From: a virus
Lineage: Duplodnaviria > Heunggongvirae > Uroviricota > Caudoviricetes
Direction: 5' to 3' (one strand)
IMG/VR virus record: IMGVR_UViG_2529292834_000009
Location: 1-8,375 of that record
DNA: 8,375 nucleotides
The position numbers and the translations under genes are program-made. Of this stretch, positions 1 through 8,375 are shown one piece after another. The notes beneath the pieces are model-generated. The model ran no database searches. It was not told the DNA's origin and saw only the letters and a program-made list of their open reading frames with translations. How positions within the stretch are numbered: the first letter of the stretch is position 1; every line of letters begins with the position of its first letter.

Positions 1-250
1 TGAGAAGCGGTGTAAGTGAACTGCAGTTGCCATGTTTTACGGCAGTGAGAGCAGAGATAGCGCTGATGTCCGGCGGTGCTTTTGCCGTTACGCACCACCC
101 CGTCAGTAGCTGAACAGGAGGGACAGCTGATAGAAACAGAAGCCACTGGAGCACCTCAAAAACACCATCATACACTAAATCAGTAAGTTGGCAGCATCAC
201 CATTTTTGCTTGTAATTGGCGTTCTGGTCTGATTTTTGTGGAGTAAGTTG

Positions 251-634
251 ATGCGTGATATTCAGATGGTTCTTGAGCGTTGGGGAGCGTGGGCGGCTAA
301 TAATCATGAAGATGTGACCTGGTCGTCCATTGCCGCCGGTTTTAAGGGATTAATTACTTCAAAAGTAAAATCTCGCCCGCAATGTTGTGACGATGACGCG
401 ATGATCATTTGCGGGTGCATGGCCCGTCTGAAAAAGAACAACAGCGATTTGCACGATTTATTAGTAGATTATTATGTAGTCGGTATGACATTCATGTCAC
501 TGGCAGGTAAGCATTGCTGCTCTGATGGTTATATCGGGAAAAGGTTACAGAAGGCTGAGGGCATAATTGAAGGGATGTTAATGGCATTAGATATCCGGTT
601 AGAGATGGATATCGTTGTTAATAACTCTAATTAA
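251..634 (+). CDS. quuD: Q-family late-gene antiterminator (phage 82/DLP12 QuuD type); probable ATG at 251 rather than the track's TTG at 236
   Basis: ORF track 236..634; translation from [26 protein letters not shown]... with Cys-rich region ([16 protein letters not shown]) matches my recollection of DLP12 QuuD; GGAG about 9 nt upstream of ATG 251; position immediately upstream of the lysis region as in lambdoid phages. Confidence 0.8.
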
Positions 635-773
635 TATGCCAATTGTTTACTAAAAATTATTAAAAATGGGGCGTTGAGACGCCCCCAAAAATAAAGGGTA
701 ATATATAACAGAAGGTTTATATAGTTAGAAGCAAGGTTGTGCTTCTAAAGGAAGTGGCTTGAGGGAGCCACTT
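635..773 (+). promoter_or_regulatory. Candidate late promoter / Q-utilisation region with stem-loops (668-673/680-685; 726-733/740-747; 752-759/766-773)
   Basis: Location directly 3' of the Q gene, where lambdoid phages carry PR' and qut; three perfect short inverted repeats read from the sequence; possible -35 TTGAGA (674..679) and -10 TAATAT (699..704) with a suboptimal 19-nt spacer. Promoter assignment is weak. Confidence 0.35.
651..686 (-). terminator. Possible minus-strand intrinsic terminator (distal terminator for the porin transcript)
   Basis: GC stem GGGGCG/CGCCCC (668..673 / 680..685); on the minus strand it is followed by ATTTTTAATAATTTTT (complement of 651..667). Confidence 0.35.
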
Positions 774-815
774 ATATGTTGGGGAGGCAAAGCCTCCCGC
801 AACATATCTTTTTCG
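774..815 (+). terminator. Intrinsic terminator-like hairpin with T-tract (candidate tR' analogue; also lies just 3' of the convergent porin gene)
   Basis: Near-perfect inverted repeat ATATGTTGGGGAGGC / GCCTCCCGCAACATAT (774..788 / 792..807, one bulged base, 3-nt loop) followed by CTTTTTCG (808..815) on the + strand. Confidence 0.5.
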
Positions 816-823
816 TAATCAGA

Positions 824-1906
824 TTAGAACTGATACACCAGACCTACAGCGACGATGTCGTCGGTATCAATACCAGCTGTTTTGGTAAACTTACTATCGT
901 CAATTAAGTTGATTTTGTAATCAACAAAAGTGGACATGTTTTTATTAAAGTAGTAAGTAGCACCGACATCGACATACTTGACTAAGTCTCGGTCACCATG
1001 AACACCAAGGTCTTTACCTTTTGACTGAAGGTAAGCAACAGATGGTCGCAGACCGAAGTCAAACTGATATTGTGCTACTGCTTCAAAGTTTTGTGCTTTG
1101 TTTGCAATATGGTTATTACCAAAAACGGTCATATTCTGAGTTTCAGAATATGTGGTAGCCAGATAGATATTGTTCGCATCATATTTCAGGCCTGCAGCCC
1201 ATACTTCCGCATTTTTGCCGGAGGCATTGAATTTGCTCTTACCATAGGCGACCTGACCGTCAGTGCGATCTGATTTAGCATAGGTTGCACCCACGCCGAA
1301 TCCTTCATACTCATAAGTAGTGGAGAAACCGAAACCATCACCATTGGCTTCAGTTACGTCAGTGCGGTCATTTTTACCCTGATACTGAGCAGCAAAGTTC
1401 AGGCCATCGACCAGACCAAAGAAGTCGTTGTTACGATAGGTTGCAACACCAGTGGTGCGACCAGTCATGAACACATCTGTTTGGGTCCAGGTATCGCCAC
1501 CGAATTCTGGCAGAACGTCAGTCCACGCACCGATGTCGTATGCTACACCGTAGTTACGGCCGTAATCGATTGAGCCGTAGTCACCGAATTTCAGGCCTGC
1601 AAATGCAAGACGGGTTTTGTCTTTGGAGGAACCTTGAGATTCAGCGCGGTTGCCTTTGAATTCATATTCCCACTGACCGAAACCAGTCAGTTGATCGTTG
1701 ATTTGGGTTTCACCTTTGAAGCCAAGACGGGCATAAGTAGTATCACCATCATCTGCATCGTTAGAGGAAAAGTAGTGCTTGGCATTAACTTTCCCGTACA
1801 GATCCAGCTTGTTACTGTCTTTATTATAAATTTCAGCTGCCTGAGCAGACATCGTCATCAGTACTGATGCAGCTACAGCAGAAATTGCCACTGTTAATTT
1901 TTTCAT
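824..1906 (-). CDS. nmpC: Outer-membrane general porin, OmpC/OmpF/PhoE family (phage-encoded Lc/NmpC type), apparently intact
   Basis: 360-aa ORF; N-terminal signal peptide [23 protein letters not shown]|AEIYNKD; porin-typical Gly/Tyr/Asp/Asn-rich beta-strand composition; C-terminal ...VGLVYQF (terminal Phe typical of beta-barrel OMPs); position between Q and the holin on the opposite strand, as for nmpC in DLP12 and lc in phage PA-2. Confidence 0.9.
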
Positions 1907-2494
1907 CGTGAGCCCTTTTTTTTGAACTATTATTAAAAAATGATGTCACTGCGCGATAAATATTCATCTAATCAATGTGATTATTTCAAGATGTAAGTTT
2001 TAGTTTCTCATTTAATTTGTGAAGTAGATCTCTATTTTTATCTGAACTTTTTCTATCGAAACCTATTTATGGCTCTTATTTGAACAAAAATAAACCTATT
2101 AGCTAATTTATATTAATGGCTGTTATTTATGGGGGTTCTATAATTCGGTGGTTTAATTTAAATCAACTAAAAATAACGCCGGAAATTATTTATTGGTTAT
2201 TTGTTGAGGTTTTCTTATATATTTGTGGTGGTGTTTTGAACACTCGGTAGCATTCTCATAAATATCATTCAGTGGTTTACGTACGTAAAAAATTGGTTAT
2301 GCTGTTAAGAGTGGTTACTTCGTCACACAGCTTAAACCCGCCGTCGAGCTGGTTTTTCCATTTTTTGAGTCTCGATATTAGCTGATAACTCAATACCTGA
2401 GTTATTCACTGACTCCGAGTCTGTTACGTTTCTGCTTTTTTGCGATACGTTGTATTCCCTCAATTTACACCCGCTTTGTCTGCGAGGTGGGGTT
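1907..2494. promoter_or_regulatory. AT-rich ORF-free divergent intergenic region: porin promoter/leader (minus strand) and lysis-gene leader (plus strand)
   Basis: No ORF of 60 aa or more in any frame; strongly AT-rich; short direct repeats (AACCTATT at 2060..2067 and 2093..2100; TATTTATGG at 2064..2072 and 2125..2133); perfect 14-bp palindrome TTTACGTACGTAAA at 2276..2289. Confidence 0.4.
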
Positions 2495-2710
2495 ATGAAA
2501 TCCATGGATAAGTTAACAACGGGTGTCGCCTATGGCACCTCAGCAGGTAGTGCCGGTTACTGGTTTTTACAGCTGCTCGATAAAGTCACGCCCTCACAGT
2601 GGGCAGCAATAGGTGTGCTGGGTAGCCTGGTATTTGGCCTGCTGACGTACCTGACAAACCTTTATTTCAAGATTAAAGAAGATAAGCGCAAGGCTGCGAG
2701 AGGTGAATAA
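2495..2710 (+). CDS. essD: Class II holin, phage 21 S (pinholin) type, with dual-start motif (Met1-Lys-Ser-Met4: ATG 2495 and ATG 2504)
   Basis: 71 codons from [26 protein letters not shown]...; two hydrophobic segments; charged C-terminus [13 protein letters not shown]; stop TAA overlaps the endolysin ATG (TAATG at 2708..2712); GGTGGGG upstream. The track ORF 2450..2710 starts further upstream at a less likely start. Confidence 0.85.
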
Positions 2711-3207
2711 TGCCTCCATCATTACGAAAAGCCGTTGCTGCTGCTATTGGTGGCGGAGCAATTGCTATAGCATCAGTGTTAATCACTGGCCCAAGTGGTA
2801 ACGATGGTCTGGAAGGTGTCAGCTACATACCATACAAAGATATCGTTGGCGTATGGACTGTATGTCACGGGCATACAGGAAAAGACATCATTCCCGGTAA
2901 AACGTATACCGAAGCAGAATGCAAAGCCCTCCTGAATAAAGACCTTGCCACGGTAGCCAGACAAATTAACCCGTACATCAAAGTCGATATACCGGAAACA
3001 ACGCGCGGCGCTCTTTACTCGTTCGTTTACAACGTGGGCGCTGGCAATTTCAGAACATCGACGCTTCTTCGCAAAATAAACCAGGGCGATATCAGAGGCG
3101 CATGTGATCAGCTACGTCGCTGGGCATACGCTGGCGGTAAGCAATGGAAAGGTCTCATGACTCGTCGTGAGATTGAGCGTGAAATCTGTTTGTGGGGTCA
3201 GCAATGA
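2710..3207 (+). CDS. rrrD: SAR (signal-anchor-release) endolysin, T4-lysozyme-like muramidase (phage 21 R type)
   Basis: 165 aa; N-terminal Gly/Ala-rich weakly hydrophobic SAR segment ([20 protein letters not shown]) followed by E(35)...D(44)...T motif typical of T4-lysozyme-family catalytic residues; translationally coupled to holin (TAATG) and to Rz (ATGA at 3204..3207). Confidence 0.9.
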
Positions 3208-3665
3208 ACAGAGTAACCGCGATTATCTCCGCTCTGGTTATCTGCATCATCGTCTGCCTGTCATGGGCTGTTAATCATTACCGTGATAACGCCATTACCT
3301 ACAAAGCCCAGCGCGACAAAAATGCCAGAGAACTGAAGCTGGCGAACGCGGCAATTACTGACATGCAGATGCGTCAGCGTGATGTTGCTGCGCTCGATGC
3401 AAAATACACGAAGGAGTTAGCTGATGCGAAAGCTGAAAATGATGCTCTGCGTGATGATGTTGCCGCTGGTCGTCGTCGGTTGCACATCAAAGCAGTCTGT
3501 CAGTCAGTGCGTGAAGCCACCACCGCCTCCGGCGTGGATAATGCAGCCTCCCCCCGACTGGCAGACACCGCTGAACGGGATTATTTCACCCTCAGAGAGA
3601 GGCTGATCACTATGCAAAAACAACTGGAAGGAACCCAGAAGTATATTAATGAGCAGTGCAGATAG
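3204..3665 (+). CDS. rzpD: Rz i-spanin (inner-membrane spanin subunit), lambda type
   Basis: 153 codons from [23 protein letters not shown]...; single N-terminal TM helix then charged coiled-coil-like periplasmic domain; ATG 3204 overlaps the endolysin stop; matches my recollection of lambda Rz. Confidence 0.85.
3424..3606 (+). CDS. rzoD: Rz1 o-spanin (outer-membrane lipoprotein) embedded in the +1 frame of Rz
   Basis: 60 aa [24 protein letters not shown]...; lipobox LVVVGC; Pro-rich (PPPPP, PPP); entirely nested in Rz in a different frame, the classic Rz/Rz1 arrangement. Confidence 0.8.
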
Positions 3666-3696
3666 AGCTGCCCATATCGATGGGCAACTCATGCAA

Positions 3697-3990
3697 TTAT
3701 TGTGAGCAATACACACGCGCTTCCAGCGGAGTATAAATGCCTAAAGTAATAAAACCGAGCAATCCATTTACGAATGTTTGCTGGGTTTCTGTTTTAACAA
3801 CATTTTCTGCGCCGCCACAAATTTTGGCTGCATCAACAGTTTTCTCCTGTCCAATTCCCGAAACGAAGAAGTGATGGGTGATGGTTTCCTTTGGTGTTAC
3901 TGCTGTCGGTTTGTTTCCAACAGTAAACGTCTGTTGAGCACATCCTGTAATAAGCATTGCCAGAGCGGCAGAAAACAACATTTTTTTCAT
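3697..3990 (-). CDS. borD: Bor lipoprotein (serum-resistance / lysogenic-conversion protein)
   Basis: 97 codons from internal ATG 3990: MKKMLFSAALAMLITGCAQQTFTV... with lipobox LITGC; AGGA 8 nt upstream of that ATG; near-identical to my recollection of lambda Bor; the track ORF 3697..4038 starts at an upstream less likely Met. Confidence 0.85.
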   Translation of the reverse strand: MKKMLFSAALAMLITGCAQQTFTVGNKPTAVTPKETITHHFFVSGIGQEKTVDAAKICGGAENVVKTETQQTFVNGLLGFITLGIYTPLEARVYCSQ

Positions 3991-4349
3991 CTTATTATCC
4001 TGCATTGTTAAAAACGGCAGAATCCTATGTGACAACAATTAAACGATAGTTAAATGGATTGATGAAAATTAAAACTATATAGGTGGATGCTCAGCCTATT
4101 GGAGGAGGGGGGCACTCAGAATCCTGTGGAATGAAATAAACCGCTCTTTCTGTCCATTACCCTTTTAGCTGCGCTGTATCGTCGCCGTATTCCCGCATTA
4201 ACCATGACCGTAGCCCGACGGGGAATTCCTTCTGCGTGAGTGTGCGGGAATAATCAAAAACGATGCACACCGGGTTTTACTGTGCTGACAGACGCAGGGT
4301 TACCCTCATAGTCGCTTTTCCGGTGCGATGGTGGAAGAAACCGGGATGT

Positions 4350-4544
4350 TTATTCATCATCACTCTGGATTGATGTATATGCTCTCTTTTCTGACGTTAG
4401 TCTCCGACGGCAGGCTTCAATGACCCAGGCTGAGAAATTCCCAGACCCTTTTTGCTCAAGAGCGATGTTAATTTGTTCAATCATTTGGTTAGGAAAGCGG
4501 ATGTTGCGGGTTGTTGTTCTGCGGGTTCTGTTCTTCGTTGACAT
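4350..4544 (-). CDS. Small basic protein with ribbon-helix-helix-like core (possibly YlcI/DUF3950-like); function unknown
   Basis: 64-aa ORF MSTKNRTRRTTTRNIRFPNQMIEQINIALEQKGSGNFSAWVIEACRRRL...; basic N-terminus followed by a beta-strand/helix pattern (IRFP..., ...GSGNFSAWVIEA) reminiscent of RHH DNA-binding proteins; a 64-aa gene occupies this position in DLP12 by recollection. Family assignment is inference. Confidence 0.5.
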   Translation of the reverse strand: MSTKNRTRRTTTRNIRFPNQMIEQINIALEQKGSGNFSAWVIEACRRRLTSEKRAYTSIQSDDE

Positions 4545-4699
4545 GAGGTTGCCCCGTATTCAGTGTCGCTGATTTGTATTGTCTGAAGTTGTTTTTACGT
4601 TAAGTTGATGCAGATCAATTAATACGATACCTGCGTCATAATTGATTATTTGACGTGGTTTGATGGCGTAGATGCACGTTGTGACATGTAGATGATAAT

Positions 4700-4932
4700 T
4701 ATTATCATTTTGCGGGTCCTTTCCGGCGATCCGACAGGTTACGGGGCGGCGACCTCGCGGGTTTTCGCTATTTATGAAAATTTTCCGGTTTAAGGCATTT
4801 CCGTTCTTCTTCGTCGTAACTTAATGTTTTTATTTAAAATACCCCCTGAAAAGAAAGGAAACGACAGGTGCTGAAAACGAGCTTTTGGGCCTCTGTCGTT
4901 TCCTTTCTCTGTTTTTGGCCGTGGAATGAACA
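4700..4932 (+). other. Lambda-type cos site: cosQ region, cosN (12-nt cohesive end GGGCGGCGACCT at 4744..4755) and cosB (R3 about 4792..4807; R2 4853..4867 and R1 4893..4907 as an inverted pair)
   Basis: ...CCGACAGGTTACG|GGGCGGCGACCTCGCGGGTTTTCGCTATTTATGAAAATTTTCCGG... matches my recollection of the lambda right end joined to the lambda left end; R1 and R2 are exact reverse complements (GAAAGGAAACGACAG / CTGTCGTTTCCTTTC); lies immediately upstream of Nu1. Confidence 0.8.
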
Positions 4933-5478
4933 ATGGAAGTCAACAAAAAGCAGCTGGCTGACATTTTCGGTGCGAGTATCCGTACCATTCAGAACTGGCA
5001 GGAACAGGGAATGCCCGTTCTGCGAGGCGGTGGCAAGGGTAATGAGGTGCTTTATGACTCTGCCGCCGTTATAAGATGGTATGCCGAAAGGGATGCTGAA
5101 ATTGAGAACGAAAAGCTGCGCCGGGAAGTTGAAGAACTGCGGCAGGCCAGCGAGACAGATCTCCAGCCAGGGACTATTGAGTACGAACGCCATCGACTTA
5201 CGCGTGCGCAGGCCGACGCACAGGAGCTGAAAAATGCCAGAGACTCCGCTGAAGTGGTGGAAACCGCATTCTGTACTTTCGTGCTGTCGCGGATCGCAGG
5301 TGAAATTGCCAGTATTCTCGACGGGATCCCCCTGTCGGTGCAGCGGCGTTTTCCGGAACTGGAAAACCGACATGTTGATTTCCTGAAACGGGATATCATC
5401 AAAGCCATGAACAAAGCAGCCGCGCTGGATGAACTGATACCGGGGTTGCTGAGTGAATATATCGAACAGTCAGGTTAA
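4933..5478 (+). CDS. nohD: Terminase small subunit Nu1 (lambda gpNu1), full length
   Basis: 181 aa MEVNKKQLADIFGASIRTIQNWQEQGMPVLRGGGKGNEVLYDSAAV...; near-identical to my recollection of lambda Nu1 (a few substitutions); N-terminal winged-HTH region; 3' end overlaps the start of gene A as in lambda. Confidence 0.9.
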   Translation: MEVNKKQLADIFGASIRTIQNWQEQGMPVLRGGGKGNEVLYDSAAVIRWYAERDAEIENEKLRREVEELRQASETDLQPGTIEYERHRLTRAQADAQELKNARDSAEVVETAFCTFVLSRIAGEIASILDGIPLSVQRRFPELENRHVDFLKRDIIKAMNKAAALDELIPGLLSEYIEQSG

Positions 5479-5668
5479 CAGGCTGCGGCATTTTGTCCGC
5501 GCCGGGCTTCGCTCACTGTTCAGGCCGGAGCCACAGACCGCCGTTGAATGGGCGGATGCTAATTACTATCTCCCGAAAGAATCCGCATACCAGGAAGGGC
5601 GCTGGGAAACACTGCCCTTTCAGCGGGCCATCATGAATGCGATGGGCAGCGACTATAACTGTTATTAA
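5453..5668 (+). pseudogene. Terminase large subunit (lambda gpA) N-terminal fragment; homology ends after about codon 68, then 3 foreign codons and a stop
   Basis: MNISNSQVNRLRHFVRAGLRSLFRPEPQTAVEWADANYYLPKESAYQEGRWETLPFQRAIMNAMGSDY matches the lambda gpA N-terminus by recollection; the full protein is about 640 aa, so roughly 570 codons are missing; breakpoint about 5655..5658. Confidence 0.85.
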
Positions 5669-6581
5669 TGAAAATCCGACAGCACAAGGATATCAGGCAA
5701 TTGCTGTAAACACGAATGATGCTTACACCTGCCCGGCAGGTTCTTATACGACGATATCGTGTCTGACGAAAAGTGATAATTCCCGGTGTCGTGCAAGGTT
5801 CGGAAAAATGTCTGATAATGGTGCGTTTGTTTTTCATTCAGATGCAGTTCTGGATCCTGTTACGGGAAATGTTGTTCATGGAAATAATGTGACGGTGACG
5901 GCAGAAAGAGTCGGTGAATGGTGGTTGTTTACCGCCACTCTTTTTGCAGATGCGGAAATGATAATCAGCTCAAGATTTGAAATCCTGGCGATGCCTGGAA
6001 TCAGTATTATCCCCAATGGCTCTACGTTAGATATTGCGATGCCTCAGGCGGAGATTGGGTCGTACAGGACGTCATTTATCATTACTGAAGGGGCTCCTGG
6101 CACTCGCTCCAGCGACATGGTGACAATACCTGTAAGAAACAATATTCACCGATTACCATTCAGTGCTCTTGTTGAAGTTAATAAAAACTGGGATATCCCT
6201 CCCAGCAAATCACCATTAATCTTTAATGTTAAAGATTATCAGGAAAATGGTCTGTTCACGCATGGATTCCGTGGTAATAATTTCTCTGATGCCGGTTCTC
6301 CTTTTATTTCTATGGGAGGGTGTAATAAATATGTGGCAACAACCCAGAGGAAAATCATTTCAGGCTTCCGTTGTGGCGCTGATGGAGATGTTCAGGCCGT
6401 ATGTAATGGTGAATTATCTGTTGCGGCAAAAACAACATGGACTTCAATTGTTCCACGGGCAGTATTGCGAATTGGAGGGCAGGGCACTAATGGGGAGTAT
6501 CATCTTTTTGGTCATATCCGTAATCTGCGTATCTGGCATAAAGAATTAACTGATGCGCAAATGGGGGAGAGTATTAAATGA
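5637..6581 (+). CDS. C-terminal fragment of a fibre/adhesin-like protein with a predicted concanavalin/LamG-like beta-sandwich C-terminal domain; 5' end lost at the deletion junction (possibly expressed from internal ATG 5808, or a pseudogene)
   Basis: 314-aa ORF whose first about 7 codons overlap the gpA remnant in another frame; beta-rich N/T/G/S/V composition; C-terminus ...VLRIGGQGTNGEYHLFGHIRNLRIWHKELTDAQM resembles the terminal strand motif of LamG-type jelly-roll domains; stop overlaps the next ATG (ATGA at 6578..6581). Domain call is from motif recognition only. Confidence 0.5.
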   Translation: MRWAATITVINENPTAQGYQAIAVNTNDAYTCPAGSYTTISCLTKSDNSRCRARFGKMSDNGAFVFHSDAVLDPVTGNVVHGNNVTVTAERVGEWWLFTATLFADAEMIISSRFEILAMPGISIIPNGSTLDIAMPQAEIGSYRTSFIITEGAPGTRSSDMVTIPVRNNIHRLPFSALVEVNKNWDIPPSKSPLIFNVKDYQENGLFTHGFRGNNFSDAGSPFISMGGCNKYVATTQRKIISGFRCGADGDVQAVCNGELSVAAKTTWTSIVPRAVLRIGGQGTNGEYHLFGHIRNLRIWHKELTDAQMGESIK

Positions 6582-6859
6582 AAGATTTAACACTCAAATT
6601 TGCAGACAGGGCCGACTTTTCGGCCTTTATGGAGAGTATTGGCTATTATGATGACGAGTCGATGCAGGATGATATTCTTATTGACGTGATAGGTAACGTG
6701 TACAAAGAAACCGGAGAACTGACTGAAGATGGCGAACCGGTATGTGTTAAGGAAGACGGATATTTTGTAAACGTGCGCATCATTAATGATGTAAAAAAAT
6801 CGTCAATATTCGATAAATACGCGGTTGTTGTTGAGCATCAACTTCGTGGCTGGATGTGA
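6578..6859 (+). CDS. Small acidic hypothetical protein (93 aa), translationally coupled to the upstream ORF
   Basis: ORF MKDLTLKFADRADFSAFMESIGYYDDESMQDDILIDVIGN...; Asp/Glu-rich; purine-rich GGGGGAGAG upstream; start overlaps the upstream stop. No recognisable family. Confidence 0.55.
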   Translation: MKDLTLKFADRADFSAFMESIGYYDDESMQDDILIDVIGNVYKETGELTEDGEPVCVKEDGYFVNVRIINDVKKSSIFDKYAVVVEHQLRGWM

Positions 6860-6868
6860 GGGAGACAA

Positions 6869-7573
6869 ATGGCTACATCGACAGTAATTCCAGGAGATAT
6901 CACCACGCTAAAGGGAGATGTCAGTAAAACTAAGGAAGATATTTCCTCAATTAACGGAAAAGTATCAACGCTTCAGACTGATATGACCAGTGCAAAGCAG
7001 GATATCAGCACCAGATACACAAAAACTGAAGTTGATAATAAGCTGAAAAACAAACTGGAAGTGAACGATCTGGAAAGCGGTCGTTATGGTGGAGATTTTT
7101 ACCCGTTGACTGGCCGTGAAGCGTTTTATATGTGGGGATTGGGCACGACTACAGCGGCGGCAAACCTTTATCTTAATCCTGACCCTGCAATTTCGTCTGT
7201 ACTGCGGTCAACATCGTCTATTCGCTATAAACATTCAGTAGAGACGATAGATTCAGAGCACGCCGATCTCATTTTCAGGATGCGCCCTGTGTGGTACAGG
7301 TCGCAATACGAAAATGACAGGCGTGACTGGGGATTCTACGGATTGATTGCCGAGGAAGTAGGAGAAATTGCCCCTCAGTTTGTACACTGGCGACCAGCTA
7401 ACGAAGATGATGCTCCTGAAGCTATTTCCAGCAATGGCCTTGTTGCCGAAGGTGTAATGTACGAACGTCTGGTTGTTCCACTGATTCACCATATCCAGAA
7501 GCTGACTGAAAGAGTTGATGAACTTGAGTCAGAATTAAAGTTGTTATCCGTTTCCCGAAGCGATATCGGATAA
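6869..7573 (+). CDS. Short tail-fibre-like protein: N-terminal degenerate repeat segment plus C-terminal domain resembling the self-cleaving intramolecular chaperone (peptidase S74 type) of phage fibres/tailspikes
   Basis: 234 aa; N-terminal about 14-residue degenerate repeats (LKGDVSKTKEDISS / INGKVSTLQTDMTS / AKQDISTRYTKTEV); C-terminal SSIRYKHSVETIDSEHADLIFRMRPVWYRSQYENDRRDWGFYGLIAEEVGEIAPQFV...GLVAEGVMYERLVVPLIHHIQKLTERVDELESELKLL resembles the S-D-x-R-x-K ... GhIAqEv ... coiled C-terminus pattern of S74 chaperone domains; GAGGGAGA SD upstream. Confidence 0.65.
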   Translation: MATSTVIPGDITTLKGDVSKTKEDISSINGKVSTLQTDMTSAKQDISTRYTKTEVDNKLKNKLEVNDLESGRYGGDFYPLTGREAFYMWGLGTTTAAANLYLNPDPAISSVLRSTSSIRYKHSVETIDSEHADLIFRMRPVWYRSQYENDRRDWGFYGLIAEEVGEIAPQFVHWRPANEDDAPEAISSNGLVAEGVMYERLVVPLIHHIQKLTERVDELESELKLLSVSRSDIG

Positions 7574-7583
7574 AGGAGGAGTA

Positions 7584-7877
7584 ATGGATATAACACCTTT
7601 CCTTCATGCGCTTTGTGCTGTGGCTGCGCAGCTACTGATTGGTCTTTTTACCGGGAACTGGGCTTACGGGGCGATAGCCGGTTGTACGTTCTTCATTGCG
7701 CGTGAACACACCCAGGCAGAATATCGCTGGATCGAAATGTTCGGGCATGGCAAGCGAATGAATATGCCGTGGTGGGGCGGTTTTGATACACGTGCATGGG
7801 ATGTGGCAAGCCTGATGGATTTTGCTGTGCCGGTGGTGGCGTGTCTGCTGGTCTGGCTGTTGGTTAATCGTGGGTGA
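7584..7877 (+). CDS. Small predicted inner-membrane protein (97 aa, two hydrophobic helices), unknown function
   Basis: MDITPFLHALCAVAAQLLIGLFTGNWAYGAIAGCTFFIA...VASLMDFAVPVVACLLVWLLVNRG; strong SD AAGGAGG 7 nt upstream of ATG; Trp/Arg-rich central loop. Confidence 0.5.
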   Translation: MDITPFLHALCAVAAQLLIGLFTGNWAYGAIAGCTFFIAREHTQAEYRWIEMFGHGKRMNMPWWGGFDTRAWDVASLMDFAVPVVACLLVWLLVNRG

Positions 7878-7887
7878 AAAAAGGTGA

Positions 7888-8007
7888 GCTGTATATGCAA
7901 CGGAGGAAGAAAACTCGTTGCTGGAAGCCTGGAAAAAGTATCGGGTGCTGCTAAACCGTGTGGACACTTCCGTAGCACCAGATATCGAGTGGCTTATTCA
8001 ACCATAA
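7888..8007 (+). pseudogene. Tail fibre assembly protein (Tfa) C-terminal remnant, about 39 codons, no start codon
   Basis: Frame translation [39 protein letters not shown] closely matches the conserved C-terminus of lambda-type Tfa (...[33 protein letters not shown]...) by recollection; different frame from the preceding ORF; preceded by an in-frame stop at 7885..7887. Confidence 0.6.
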
Positions 8008-8375
8008 TAAACAGTATGTATATCATAGGTTATTAATTGTGAGTTTTTTCGGTGTGTTATTTGTTTGTTTGATGTTATGCTTTTGCGCCCCAAAAGGTTG
8101 TTTAGATGTATTTTATCAATTGATTTTCAATGTCGTTTAATAAAGAAAAATTAAGCAAGCTGGATGTTGGTTTTTTGTTAATTGAATGGTTCTAATAATG
8201 TTTTTTTACTGTTGTTGAATGTGACTTGATAAGAAATGCAAGTAAAAATGATACTCTTTTTATTTTAAATTCAAACGGTTGACATATATATAGCAAGAGG
8301 TTTCAGGTGCGTTGTAGTGAGTTTATGTTAATAAAAAGTATAGTAAGCGTTGAAAAATGTAACTTTGAAATACGT
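8008..8375. promoter_or_regulatory. AT-rich ORF-free region, probably the upstream/regulatory region of a gene beyond the window
   Basis: No ORF of 60 aa or more; strongly AT-rich with T-runs; TTGACA at 8279..8284 but no convincing -10 at proper spacing. Confidence 0.3.

Follow-up and report, generated by a model that had tools for sequence, protein, structure and literature searches.

Fibre genes and small proteins at the locus

The window, that is, the whole stretch of 8,375 nucleotides analysed here (IMG/VR virus record IMGVR_UViG_2529292834_000009, positions 1 to 8,375), is a defective (cryptic) lambdoid prophage of the DLP12 type. Four genes follow one another on the + strand of its right half: the 3' remnant of a side (lateral) tail fibre gene, an open reading frame (ORF) for 314 residues at 5637..6581; orf93 (6578..6859), which encodes an acidic cytoplasmic protein of 93 residues; a complete second or "mini-fibre" gene for 234 residues (6869..7573); and orf97 (7584..7877), which encodes an inner-membrane protein of 97 residues. 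The two small ORFs flank the mini-fibre gene, as an earlier sequence-only reading of this DNA had stated, and they are the main subject of this report. A deletion has joined the stub of a terminase gene to the last ~310 residues of the side tail fibre gene (stf) and has left orf93, the mini-fibre gene with its S74 domain, and orf97 intact.

The 314-residue ORF is the "LamG-like ORF" of the sequence-only reading. Its match to positions 474-793 of the 793 positions of the phrog_1419 "tail protein" profile (E = 1e-81) and its alignment with the C-terminal ~300 residues of side or lateral tail fibres of 655-1481 residues, at 33-40% identity in five phage groups, show that it is a truncated fibre gene and not a complete one. 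About 40% of a side tail fibre gene, counted from the C-terminal end, is left, and the ORF begins with an ATG at 5637, on the deletion junction. Because only the C-terminal part of the fibre is present, the deletion fused the terminase stub to the middle of stf. The remnant consists of a region resembling the gene transfer agent (GTA) spike fibre, followed by a ConA/LamG lectin-like head; it matches NF048003 (GTA spike fibre), from which RefSeq takes the name "phage head spike fiber domain-containing protein," and weakly Laminin_G_3.

Within such lectin-headed fibres, the last 40 residues are conserved at 56-82% identity with the pattern IRIGGQ..G..HLFGH[IV]RN[FL]RIWHKELTD.Q, and the remainder of the head is variable (32-88% identity, mostly 35-50%). 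Identity at the DNA level between the window and the lambdoid phage PhiR49_1 begins ~115 nucleotides before the stop codon of the fibre gene. Judging from this alignment, the start of identity, in the area of 6460-6578, is a mosaic junction inside the lectin head.

The mini-fibre protein contains a Peptidase_S74 domain (PF13884) at residues 116-172, with a Pfam score of 27.6 bits, above the cut-off of 22. The protein shares 95% identity with the 234-residue protein of PhiR49_1 and 55% with a 231-residue protein of the T1-like phage Bas05, whose gene was annotated by the BASEL authors as "putative lateral tail fiber chaperone." Its N-terminal ~16 residues (MATSTVIPGDITTLKG) carry a motif that is common to second fibres of 203-576 residues in T1-like, T5-like, and Nonagvirus phages, and this motif is probably a docking peptide. 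Because the autoproteolytic chaperone domain starts at residue 116, the mature product would be only ~115 residues of coiled coil, and no receptor-binding domain is evident in it.

Both small genes are real, catalogued, uncharacterised phage genes, and they are common rather than exotic. The sequence-only reading had found no family for either protein. That holds for Pfam, NCBIfam, and PADLOC, but not for PHROG, where both proteins are full-length family members: residues 1-93 of orf93 match positions 1-92 of the 92 positions of phrog_1361 (E = 2.4e-46), and residues 1-96 of orf97 match positions 1-96 of the 97 positions of phrog_1443 (E = 2.8e-58). Against Pfam and NCBIfam, orf93 has no match at E<=1 and orf97 none beyond a chance-level match to PhoR (E = 0.066); neither protein matches a defence model of PADLOC-DB at E<=1. 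Sequence-profile searches of the PDB with both gave a best E value of 0.39, and the BFVD search returned uncharacterised small viral proteins only.

Full-length homologues of both proteins occur at 37-53% identity across several phage families. The ratio of nonsynonymous to synonymous substitution rates is 0.15-0.34 for orf93 against diverged phage homologues and 0.16-0.28 for orf97 against diverged phage copies; by this measure, both families are under purifying selection. The exact orf93 and orf97 sequences are already present in public collections on ~1000 contigs each, always under the names "hypothetical," "Prophage protein," or "Ybl63" (the UniRef name of orf97), and RefSeq calls both "hypothetical protein." Among 5426 complete E. 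coli genomes, the orf93 gene is found in 988 (18%) and the orf97 gene in 1900 (35%), the latter in up to 7 copies per genome.

orf93 and the lectin-headed fibres

The ATG of orf93 (6578-6580) overlaps the TGA of the fibre remnant (6579-6581) as ATGA. The boundaries and the acidity given in the sequence-only reading agree with the ORF listing and with the composition of the protein, which has a calculated isoelectric point of 4.31 and contains 20 Asp and Glu versus 10 Lys and Arg residues. The AlphaFold2 monomer model, which rests on a shallow alignment of 14 sequences, shows a small α+β domain with a mean predicted local distance difference test score (pLDDT) of 81.7. The C-terminal LREW tail is conserved, yet it is predicted to be disordered. 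A profile search for homologues gave mostly close relatives that were already identified, with little gain in diversity. Fold searches of the PDB and BFVD gave weak generic matches alone, with no link to known fibre joints or to the tail fibre assembly protein Tfa.

Homologues of orf93 were identified by tblastn in 179 phage records, and nine genomic contexts were compared: the window, PhiR49_1, phage 21, and ev243 (lambdoid), Bas05 (T1-like), L6jm and NG_A1 (T5-like), JenP2 (Nonagvirus), and Gotham (rV5-like). In all nine, orf93 overlaps the stop codon of the upstream fibre gene by 4 nucleotides or abuts it, so the translational coupling to the LamG-like ORF noted from sequence is kept in every context compared. 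The last ~300 residues of the upstream fibre are homologous to the window remnant, again in nine of nine. The same layout of a fibre with a lectin-like head, a 92-residue protein, and a second fibre is seen in the T5-like phage Bas32, and AKFV33 has a positional equivalent of 88 residues that is too divergent for tblastn. The head domain is present in 205 phage records, compared with 179 for orf93, and the two taxon breakdowns are almost alike; head and orf93 therefore co-occur nearly one to one. orf93 thus appears to be an obligate companion of fibres that end in a lectin-like head.

A second fibre gene begins ~10 nucleotides past orf93 in six of the nine contexts, from four phage groups, and these second fibres share the N-terminal pattern M[AV]T.T[VI]IP.DIT.LK. 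The identity of orf93 does not follow that of the variable part of the head (Spearman 0.04), and it follows that of the conserved last 40 residues weakly (0.37). The gene is kept in streamlined virulent phages (T1-, T5-, Nonagvirus, and rV5-like) as well as in temperate ones.

Records named as Campylobacter phages (A12a, C12, C14, and others, ~135 kb) and as Listeria phage LM 4-11-1 also carry the fibre module of rV5-like or T1-like coliphages. In the Campylobacter records, the copies match the rV5-like module at ~96-97% identity, and the records with Campylobacter and Listeria labels are therefore probably mislabelled or contaminated.

The conserved coupling to a lectin-headed fibre makes a chaperone or partner role the natural reading for orf93, and the chaperone-like role guessed at in the sequence-only reading is a reasonable one. 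Retention of the gene in virulent phages argues for a need in fibre function. Its most likely role is in the assembly of the fibre or as an adaptor. It would act in the cytoplasm as an accessory to the fibre, in the slot that is held by Tfa in lambda, and its target is probably a conserved element and not the variable surface that binds the receptor. Candidate targets are the conserved last ~40 residues of the head and the conserved N-terminal peptide of the second fibre (MATSTVIPGDIT). Bound there, orf93 would aid the folding of the trimeric fibre tip or form the joint for a branch fibre.

The resemblance to proteins of the Tfa type (lambda Tfa, the Tfa of Mu and P2, Caudo_TAP, and functionally T4 gp38 and gp57A) lies in position and character: orf93 sits directly 3' of a fibre gene and is coupled to it, and it is a small, acidic protein that is inherited together with the fibre tip in phages of unrelated backbones. 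In other respects it is unlike them. It has no detectable sequence similarity to these proteins and no fold match in the PDB and BFVD searches, its partner fibre ends in a lectin/ConA-like head and not in a tip of the Stf/gpH type, and its sequence does not change in step with the variable part of the head. Homology to known Tfa or tail-assembly proteins, which the sequence-only reading had named as evidence against its own suggestions, was found neither for orf93 nor for orf97.

Several observations weigh against an assembly or adaptor role. Pfam and NCBIfam give no similarity of orf93 to Tfa or Caudo_TAP, and BLASTP against K-12 TfaD gives E = 42. The second fibre is absent in three of the nine contexts, which argues against a pure branch-adaptor function. 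No virion proteomics or electron cryomicroscopy study that could show orf93 in the particle was found in the literature searched; the AKFV33 virion study analysed four major gel bands and no more, and the EmilHeitz fibre map, at 7-9.5 Å, was published without mention of an extra subunit.

A comparison with branched fibres bears on whether orf93 remains in the particle. In DT57C (LtfA and LtfB; PMC4728585) and Bas32 (Gp22 and Gp24; PMC11990801), a proximal fibre is likewise followed by a second fibre with an S74 chaperone. The Bas32 arrangement, a fibre with a lectin-like head, a 92-residue protein, and a second fibre, is exactly that of the window; in the model of the 2025 BASEL paper, the head of the proximal fibre is galectin-like and the distal fibre is T-shaped (PMC11990801). 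The LtfA of DT57C ends in an S74 domain and not in a lectin head (PMC4728585). The second fibre of the window differs from those of the branched T5-like fibres in size, with only 234 residues and ~115 residues of coiled coil once mature. In the passages searched, the small intervening protein is neither discussed nor given a role in the DT57C (PMC4728585) and Bas32 (PMC11990801) papers; no role is assigned to the small proteins in the DT57C, BASEL, RBPseg, AKFV33, and rV5 papers.

On this basis, orf93 could itself be a structural subunit of the virion that caps the lectin head and docks the N-terminal peptide of the second S74 fibre, so that a branched fibre results. The motif-bearing second fibre that begins close behind orf93 in six of the nine contexts would suit such a joint. 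RefSeq labels the Bas32 homologue "tail fiber protein," the BASEL paper predicts that the distal T-shaped fibre is attached to the lectin-headed proximal fibre (PMC11990801), and the identity of orf93 tracks phage lineage and not the variable head. Phage 21, ev243, and the rV5-like phages, however, keep orf93 without a second fibre. We found no report of its detection in a virion and no fold kinship with known fibre joints, and we consider a virion subunit unlikely, although it keeps some weight beside an assembly or adaptor factor.

orf97 and the receptor-binding genes

orf97 starts at an ATG that is preceded, at a distance of 4 nucleotides, by the Shine-Dalgarno sequence AAGGAGG (7573..7579, + strand, read from the sequence). 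The protein has a grand average of hydropathy of +0.53, and the description of a membrane protein with a strong Shine-Dalgarno sequence was borne out. Its description as a two-helix protein is borne out in part, since hydropathy gives two hydrophobic blocks, but the AlphaFold2 monomer model (pLDDT 94.4) has three helices, at residues 4-23, 26-52, and 74-96. An alignment of 65 members of the family (PHROG 1443) contains 23 invariant columns, which include His-8, Gln-16, Arg-40-Glu-41, Thr-43-Gln-44-Ala-45-Glu-46-Tyr-47-Arg-48-Trp-49, Met-61-Pro-62, and Trp-64-Gly-65-Gly-66-Phe-67. They give the signature HA...REHTQAEYRWI...MPWWGGF, in which His-42 and Trp-63 lie outside the invariant set, and the core GRE..QAEYR.I persists in far more distant members.

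An exhaustive search of representative sequences gave 439 clusters at 50% identity for this family. Among the 150 clusters listed, all members are stand-alone proteins of 63-146 residues, and there are no fusions to larger domains. The fold search was uninformative, and literature searches under the RefSeq accessions or the name "ybl63" gave no relevant result. The G+C content of the gene is 53%, compared with 40-45% in the neighbouring fibre genes. This value matches the phage backbone and the host average, so there is no clear signature of a moron.

In 12 of 14 contexts, from temperate phages of the siphovirus, podovirus, and myovirus types, orf97 comes immediately behind a receptor-binding gene; an unannotated Aeromonas phage and a locus at a contig edge are two further contexts, neither of which could be scored. 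In lambdoid phages, the gene follows the 92/93-residue gene or the S74 mini-fibre gene. It overlaps the stop codon of the tailspike gene by 4 nucleotides in the P22-like phage JEP4. In phiHAP-1 the homologue overlaps the stop codon of tfa by 4 nucleotides and the sheath gene comes next, a position that we take to be the slot of Z/fun in P2. In HP1-like prophages of Aeromonas and Leclercia, the gene directly follows S74-type fibres; Citrobacter and Salmonella prophages have it behind pectate-lyase tailspikes, and another E. coli prophage has it behind an SGNH-type tailspike. In Comamonas, one small gene separates it from a GpJ-like fibre. Every full-length match in the phage collection is in a temperate-type genome of 38-50 kb, and the gene is absent from the seven virulent-phage loci that carry the same module of fibre and orf93. 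The orf97 homologue of phage 21, gp24, precedes the sitABCD iron/manganese transporter operon, which lies on the opposite strand (locus 7386-10835), and the position after orf97 is therefore a cargo insertion site.

The linkage to varied receptor-binding genes, the restriction to temperate phages, and the invariant site together suggest a lysogeny-related envelope function that is directed at a conserved host component. In the sequence-only reading, exclusion or abortive infection had been raised as a speculation for this protein, and the context survey somewhat strengthens the exclusion idea. Our proposal for orf97 is an envelope factor linked to lysogeny, which would act at the cytoplasmic membrane and would not be a component of the virion or of its assembly. 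It might exclude superinfection or interfere with a receptor or glycan pathway, in the logic of cor, llp, gtrABC, and oac. From context, an identity as an exclusion or conversion factor is plausible but tentative.

Genes that mask or convert receptors adjoin receptor-binding protein genes in several phages: cor in phi80, N15, and T1, llp in T5, gtrABC in P22, oac in Sf6, and the O-antigen conversion genes of epsilon15 and D3. orf97 is like them in that it lies directly downstream of a receptor-binding gene, its product is located in a membrane, and its phages are temperate. Cor and Llp are outer-membrane lipoproteins, and the Gtr and Oac proteins are enzymes of greater size; orf97 lacks a lipobox and is not homologous to these proteins, no promoter of its own was found, and the high conservation of its sequence contrasts with the wide variation among the adjacent receptor-binding proteins. 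T4 Imm, P22 SieA, and HK97 gp15 are superinfection-exclusion proteins of the inner membrane. As a small phage protein of the cytoplasmic membrane with few transmembrane helices, orf97 resembles them, without a sequence relationship (PADLOC, Pfam, and PHROG annotation were negative). The genes of Imm, SieA, and gp15, which are expressed either early or by the prophage, are not linked to receptor-binding genes. The Tai system of tail-assembly interference was also considered and rejected; the Tai genes lie elsewhere in phi80 and are unrelated.

Other observations speak against an exclusion or conversion factor expressed in the lysogen. A crude scan found no site resembling a σ70 promoter on the + strand at 5400-8225 and no terminator-like site after 7877, and the tight packing of orf97 behind late genes suits late expression better than expression in a lysogen. 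No defence model of PADLOC is matched, and we know of no exclusion phenotype for orf97. Counts of Lys and Arg place the conserved loop in the cytoplasm and the TMHMM prediction of the phage 21 annotators places both termini inside, so that the topology is ambiguous. The temperate-only pattern comes from a limited set of ~20 loci.

The same packing could mean that orf97 is a helper of the late lytic phase that, for example, prevents the surface glycan recognised by the neighbouring receptor-binding protein from being made or exported, or conditions the membrane in some other way, and so keeps progeny from being caught on debris or on glycan intermediates in the cytoplasm. The gene is coupled to or packed behind late structural genes, with the 4-nucleotide overlaps in JEP4 and phiHAP-1 and with a distance of 10 nucleotides and a strong Shine-Dalgarno sequence in the window, and it has no promoter-like site of its own. 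It lies inside late operons, between two tailspike genes in one Salmonella prophage and between tfa and the sheath gene in phiHAP-1, and every upstream partner is a receptor-binding protein of a glycan-targeting type. Its absence from virulent phages with the same fibre module is, however, hard to explain if it were useful in each lytic cycle, and late expression would allow little time to alter a pre-existing layer of surface glycan. We therefore regard a late lytic helper as improbable.

A lysis protein (a holin, an antiholin, or similar) is very improbable: although orf97 has ~100 residues and two to three hydrophobic helices and lies immediately upstream of a holin-endolysin-spanin cassette in one E. 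coli prophage, it is distant from the lysis cassette in lambdoid, P22-like, and P2-like phages and in the window (~5 kb from essD/rrrD/rzpD), where the cassette has its own holin gene, essD (2450-2710), and it ends 2-3 residues past the last helix, without the charged C-terminal tail that holins typically have, has an invariant hydrophilic loop unlike holins, and has no holin match in Pfam or PHROG.

The stranded fibre module in its prophage

A chromosomal region of 86 complete E. coli genomes, mostly enterotoxigenic E. coli O6:H16 and relatives, matches the right half of the window at 100% identity; in these enterotoxigenic strains, the matching region is the DLP12 site at argU. In M9682-C1, the gene order begins with tRNA-Arg and intD and reaches, further on, rusA, ylcG, quuD, ompC (nmpC), essD, rrrD, rzpD, iss/bor, ylcI, and nohD. 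After nohD come an incomplete coding sequence, the "phage head spike fiber domain-containing protein," a hypothetical protein, a "tail fiber domain-containing protein," and a second hypothetical protein, and the right end is formed by an N-terminally truncated "tail fiber assembly protein," appY, and ompT. The incomplete coding sequence directly after nohD is the N-terminal stub of the large terminase subunit (5453..5668, + strand), an aaaD-like pseudogene with an ORF of 71 residues, and K-12 carries an equivalent aaaD pseudogene. This stub is the left edge of the deletion that took out the head and tail genes.

At the other end, the C-terminal 36 codons of a Tfa/TfaX-like gene (7897..8007, + strand; RefSeq "tail fiber assembly protein, missing N-terminus") begin 20 nucleotides past orf97. 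In intact relatives, ybcY on the reverse strand and a short tfa gene stand between orf97 and the point at which the remnant begins; both are absent here, so a second small deletion happened there. The sequence-only reading had placed the membrane ORF where N-terminal Tfa sequence would be expected. Against this, orf97 is a stand-alone conserved gene that is followed in intact relatives by ybcY and then a separate tfa, it shows no similarity to K-12 TfaD (BLASTP, E = 33), and the Tfa remnant starts only at 7897.

PhiR49_1 has the layout J-lom-Stf (812 residues)-93-234-97-ybcY-tfa...ompT. The layout of phage 21 is J-Stf (686 residues)-gp23 (92 residues)-gp24 (97 residues), from which the mini-fibre is absent, and ev243 is arranged like phage 21 as J-(lom)-Stf-92-97, also without the mini-fibre. 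K-12 has the same nohD/aaaD and appY flanks with tfaD-ybcY'-tfaX between them, and it lacks all four of the window genes. The absence of both small ORFs from a related prophage with identical flanks, which the sequence-only reading had named as a sign against them, is thus seen in K-12 DLP12, but it does not make them spurious. K-12 carries a different fibre-end module at this place, and the difference is therefore one of module replacement and decay.

The region would thus represent the stranded distal end of a mobile side-tail-fibre module in a DLP12-type defective lambdoid prophage. As a whole, the explanation in which the module is stranded, orf93 is a fibre accessory, and orf97 is a lysogeny-linked envelope factor is the best that we have, and we hold it to be probable to a modest degree. 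Within the window, orf93 and orf97 are most likely passive cargo, and their transcription would be possible only by read-through from the Q-dependent late promoter.

That either gene is a chance or decaying ORF is hardly credible: the prophage has lost its head and tail genes, its fibre gene is truncated, and there is no virion for the products to serve, but both genes are full length and 91% (orf93) or 93-95% (orf97) identical to copies in functional phages, and they belong to families under purifying selection with identical copies on ~1000 contigs each. A lack of current use in the remnant fits the stranded module, whereas the claim that these are not genes does not.

Some features of this DLP12 variant lie outside the fibre end. 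The nmpC/ompC-like porin gene (824-1906, - strand) is intact in the window, and it is split by IS5 in K-12. The genes ybcV and ybcW, which stand between borD and ylcI in K-12, are missing from the variant (4040-4350). An ORF of 60 residues with a lipoprotein signal (...LPLVVVGC) at 3424-3606 is embedded in the +1 frame of rzpD (3192-3665); it is RzoD, an o-spanin of the Rz1 type, as in K-12. A scan of the window with Rfam found no RNA family.

At the level of the window, the finding is real but ordinary. Locally it is of minor importance, as it concerns remnants in a dead prophage whose identical proteins are already in databases. As broader patterns, orf93 as the companion of lectin-headed fibres and orf97 as a membrane protein of temperate phages that is linked to receptor-binding genes are not demonstrated. 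The most far-reaching form of these patterns is speculative, and we think it rather unlikely: orf97/Ybl63 would be an undescribed, widespread class of inner-membrane effectors that temperate phages of all three tail morphologies have attached to the genes of their glycan-targeting receptor-binding proteins, and orf93 would be the missing third subunit of lectin-headed branched fibres. The invariant H...REHTQAEYRWI...MPWWGGF site may then be catalytic or bind a target, which may be a conserved envelope pathway (undecaprenyl-linked glycan assembly or ligation) or DNA entry, with protection of the lysogen or of the progeny as the outcome. As a third subunit, orf93 may have been omitted from the current structural models of T1-, T5-, and rV5-like fibres.

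Both families are very common in E. coli, and neither is characterised. orf93 lies within the fibre loci of model and therapeutic coliphages, among them the BASEL T1-like, T5-like, and rV5-like phages and phage 21. Should orf93 be a subunit or a chaperone of the fibre, its omission would make fibre engineering and structural models incomplete. The linkage of orf97 to receptor-binding genes across prophages of the siphovirus, podovirus, and myovirus types was not found in the literature searched; if it is true, orf97 would be a candidate for a new exclusion or conversion function.

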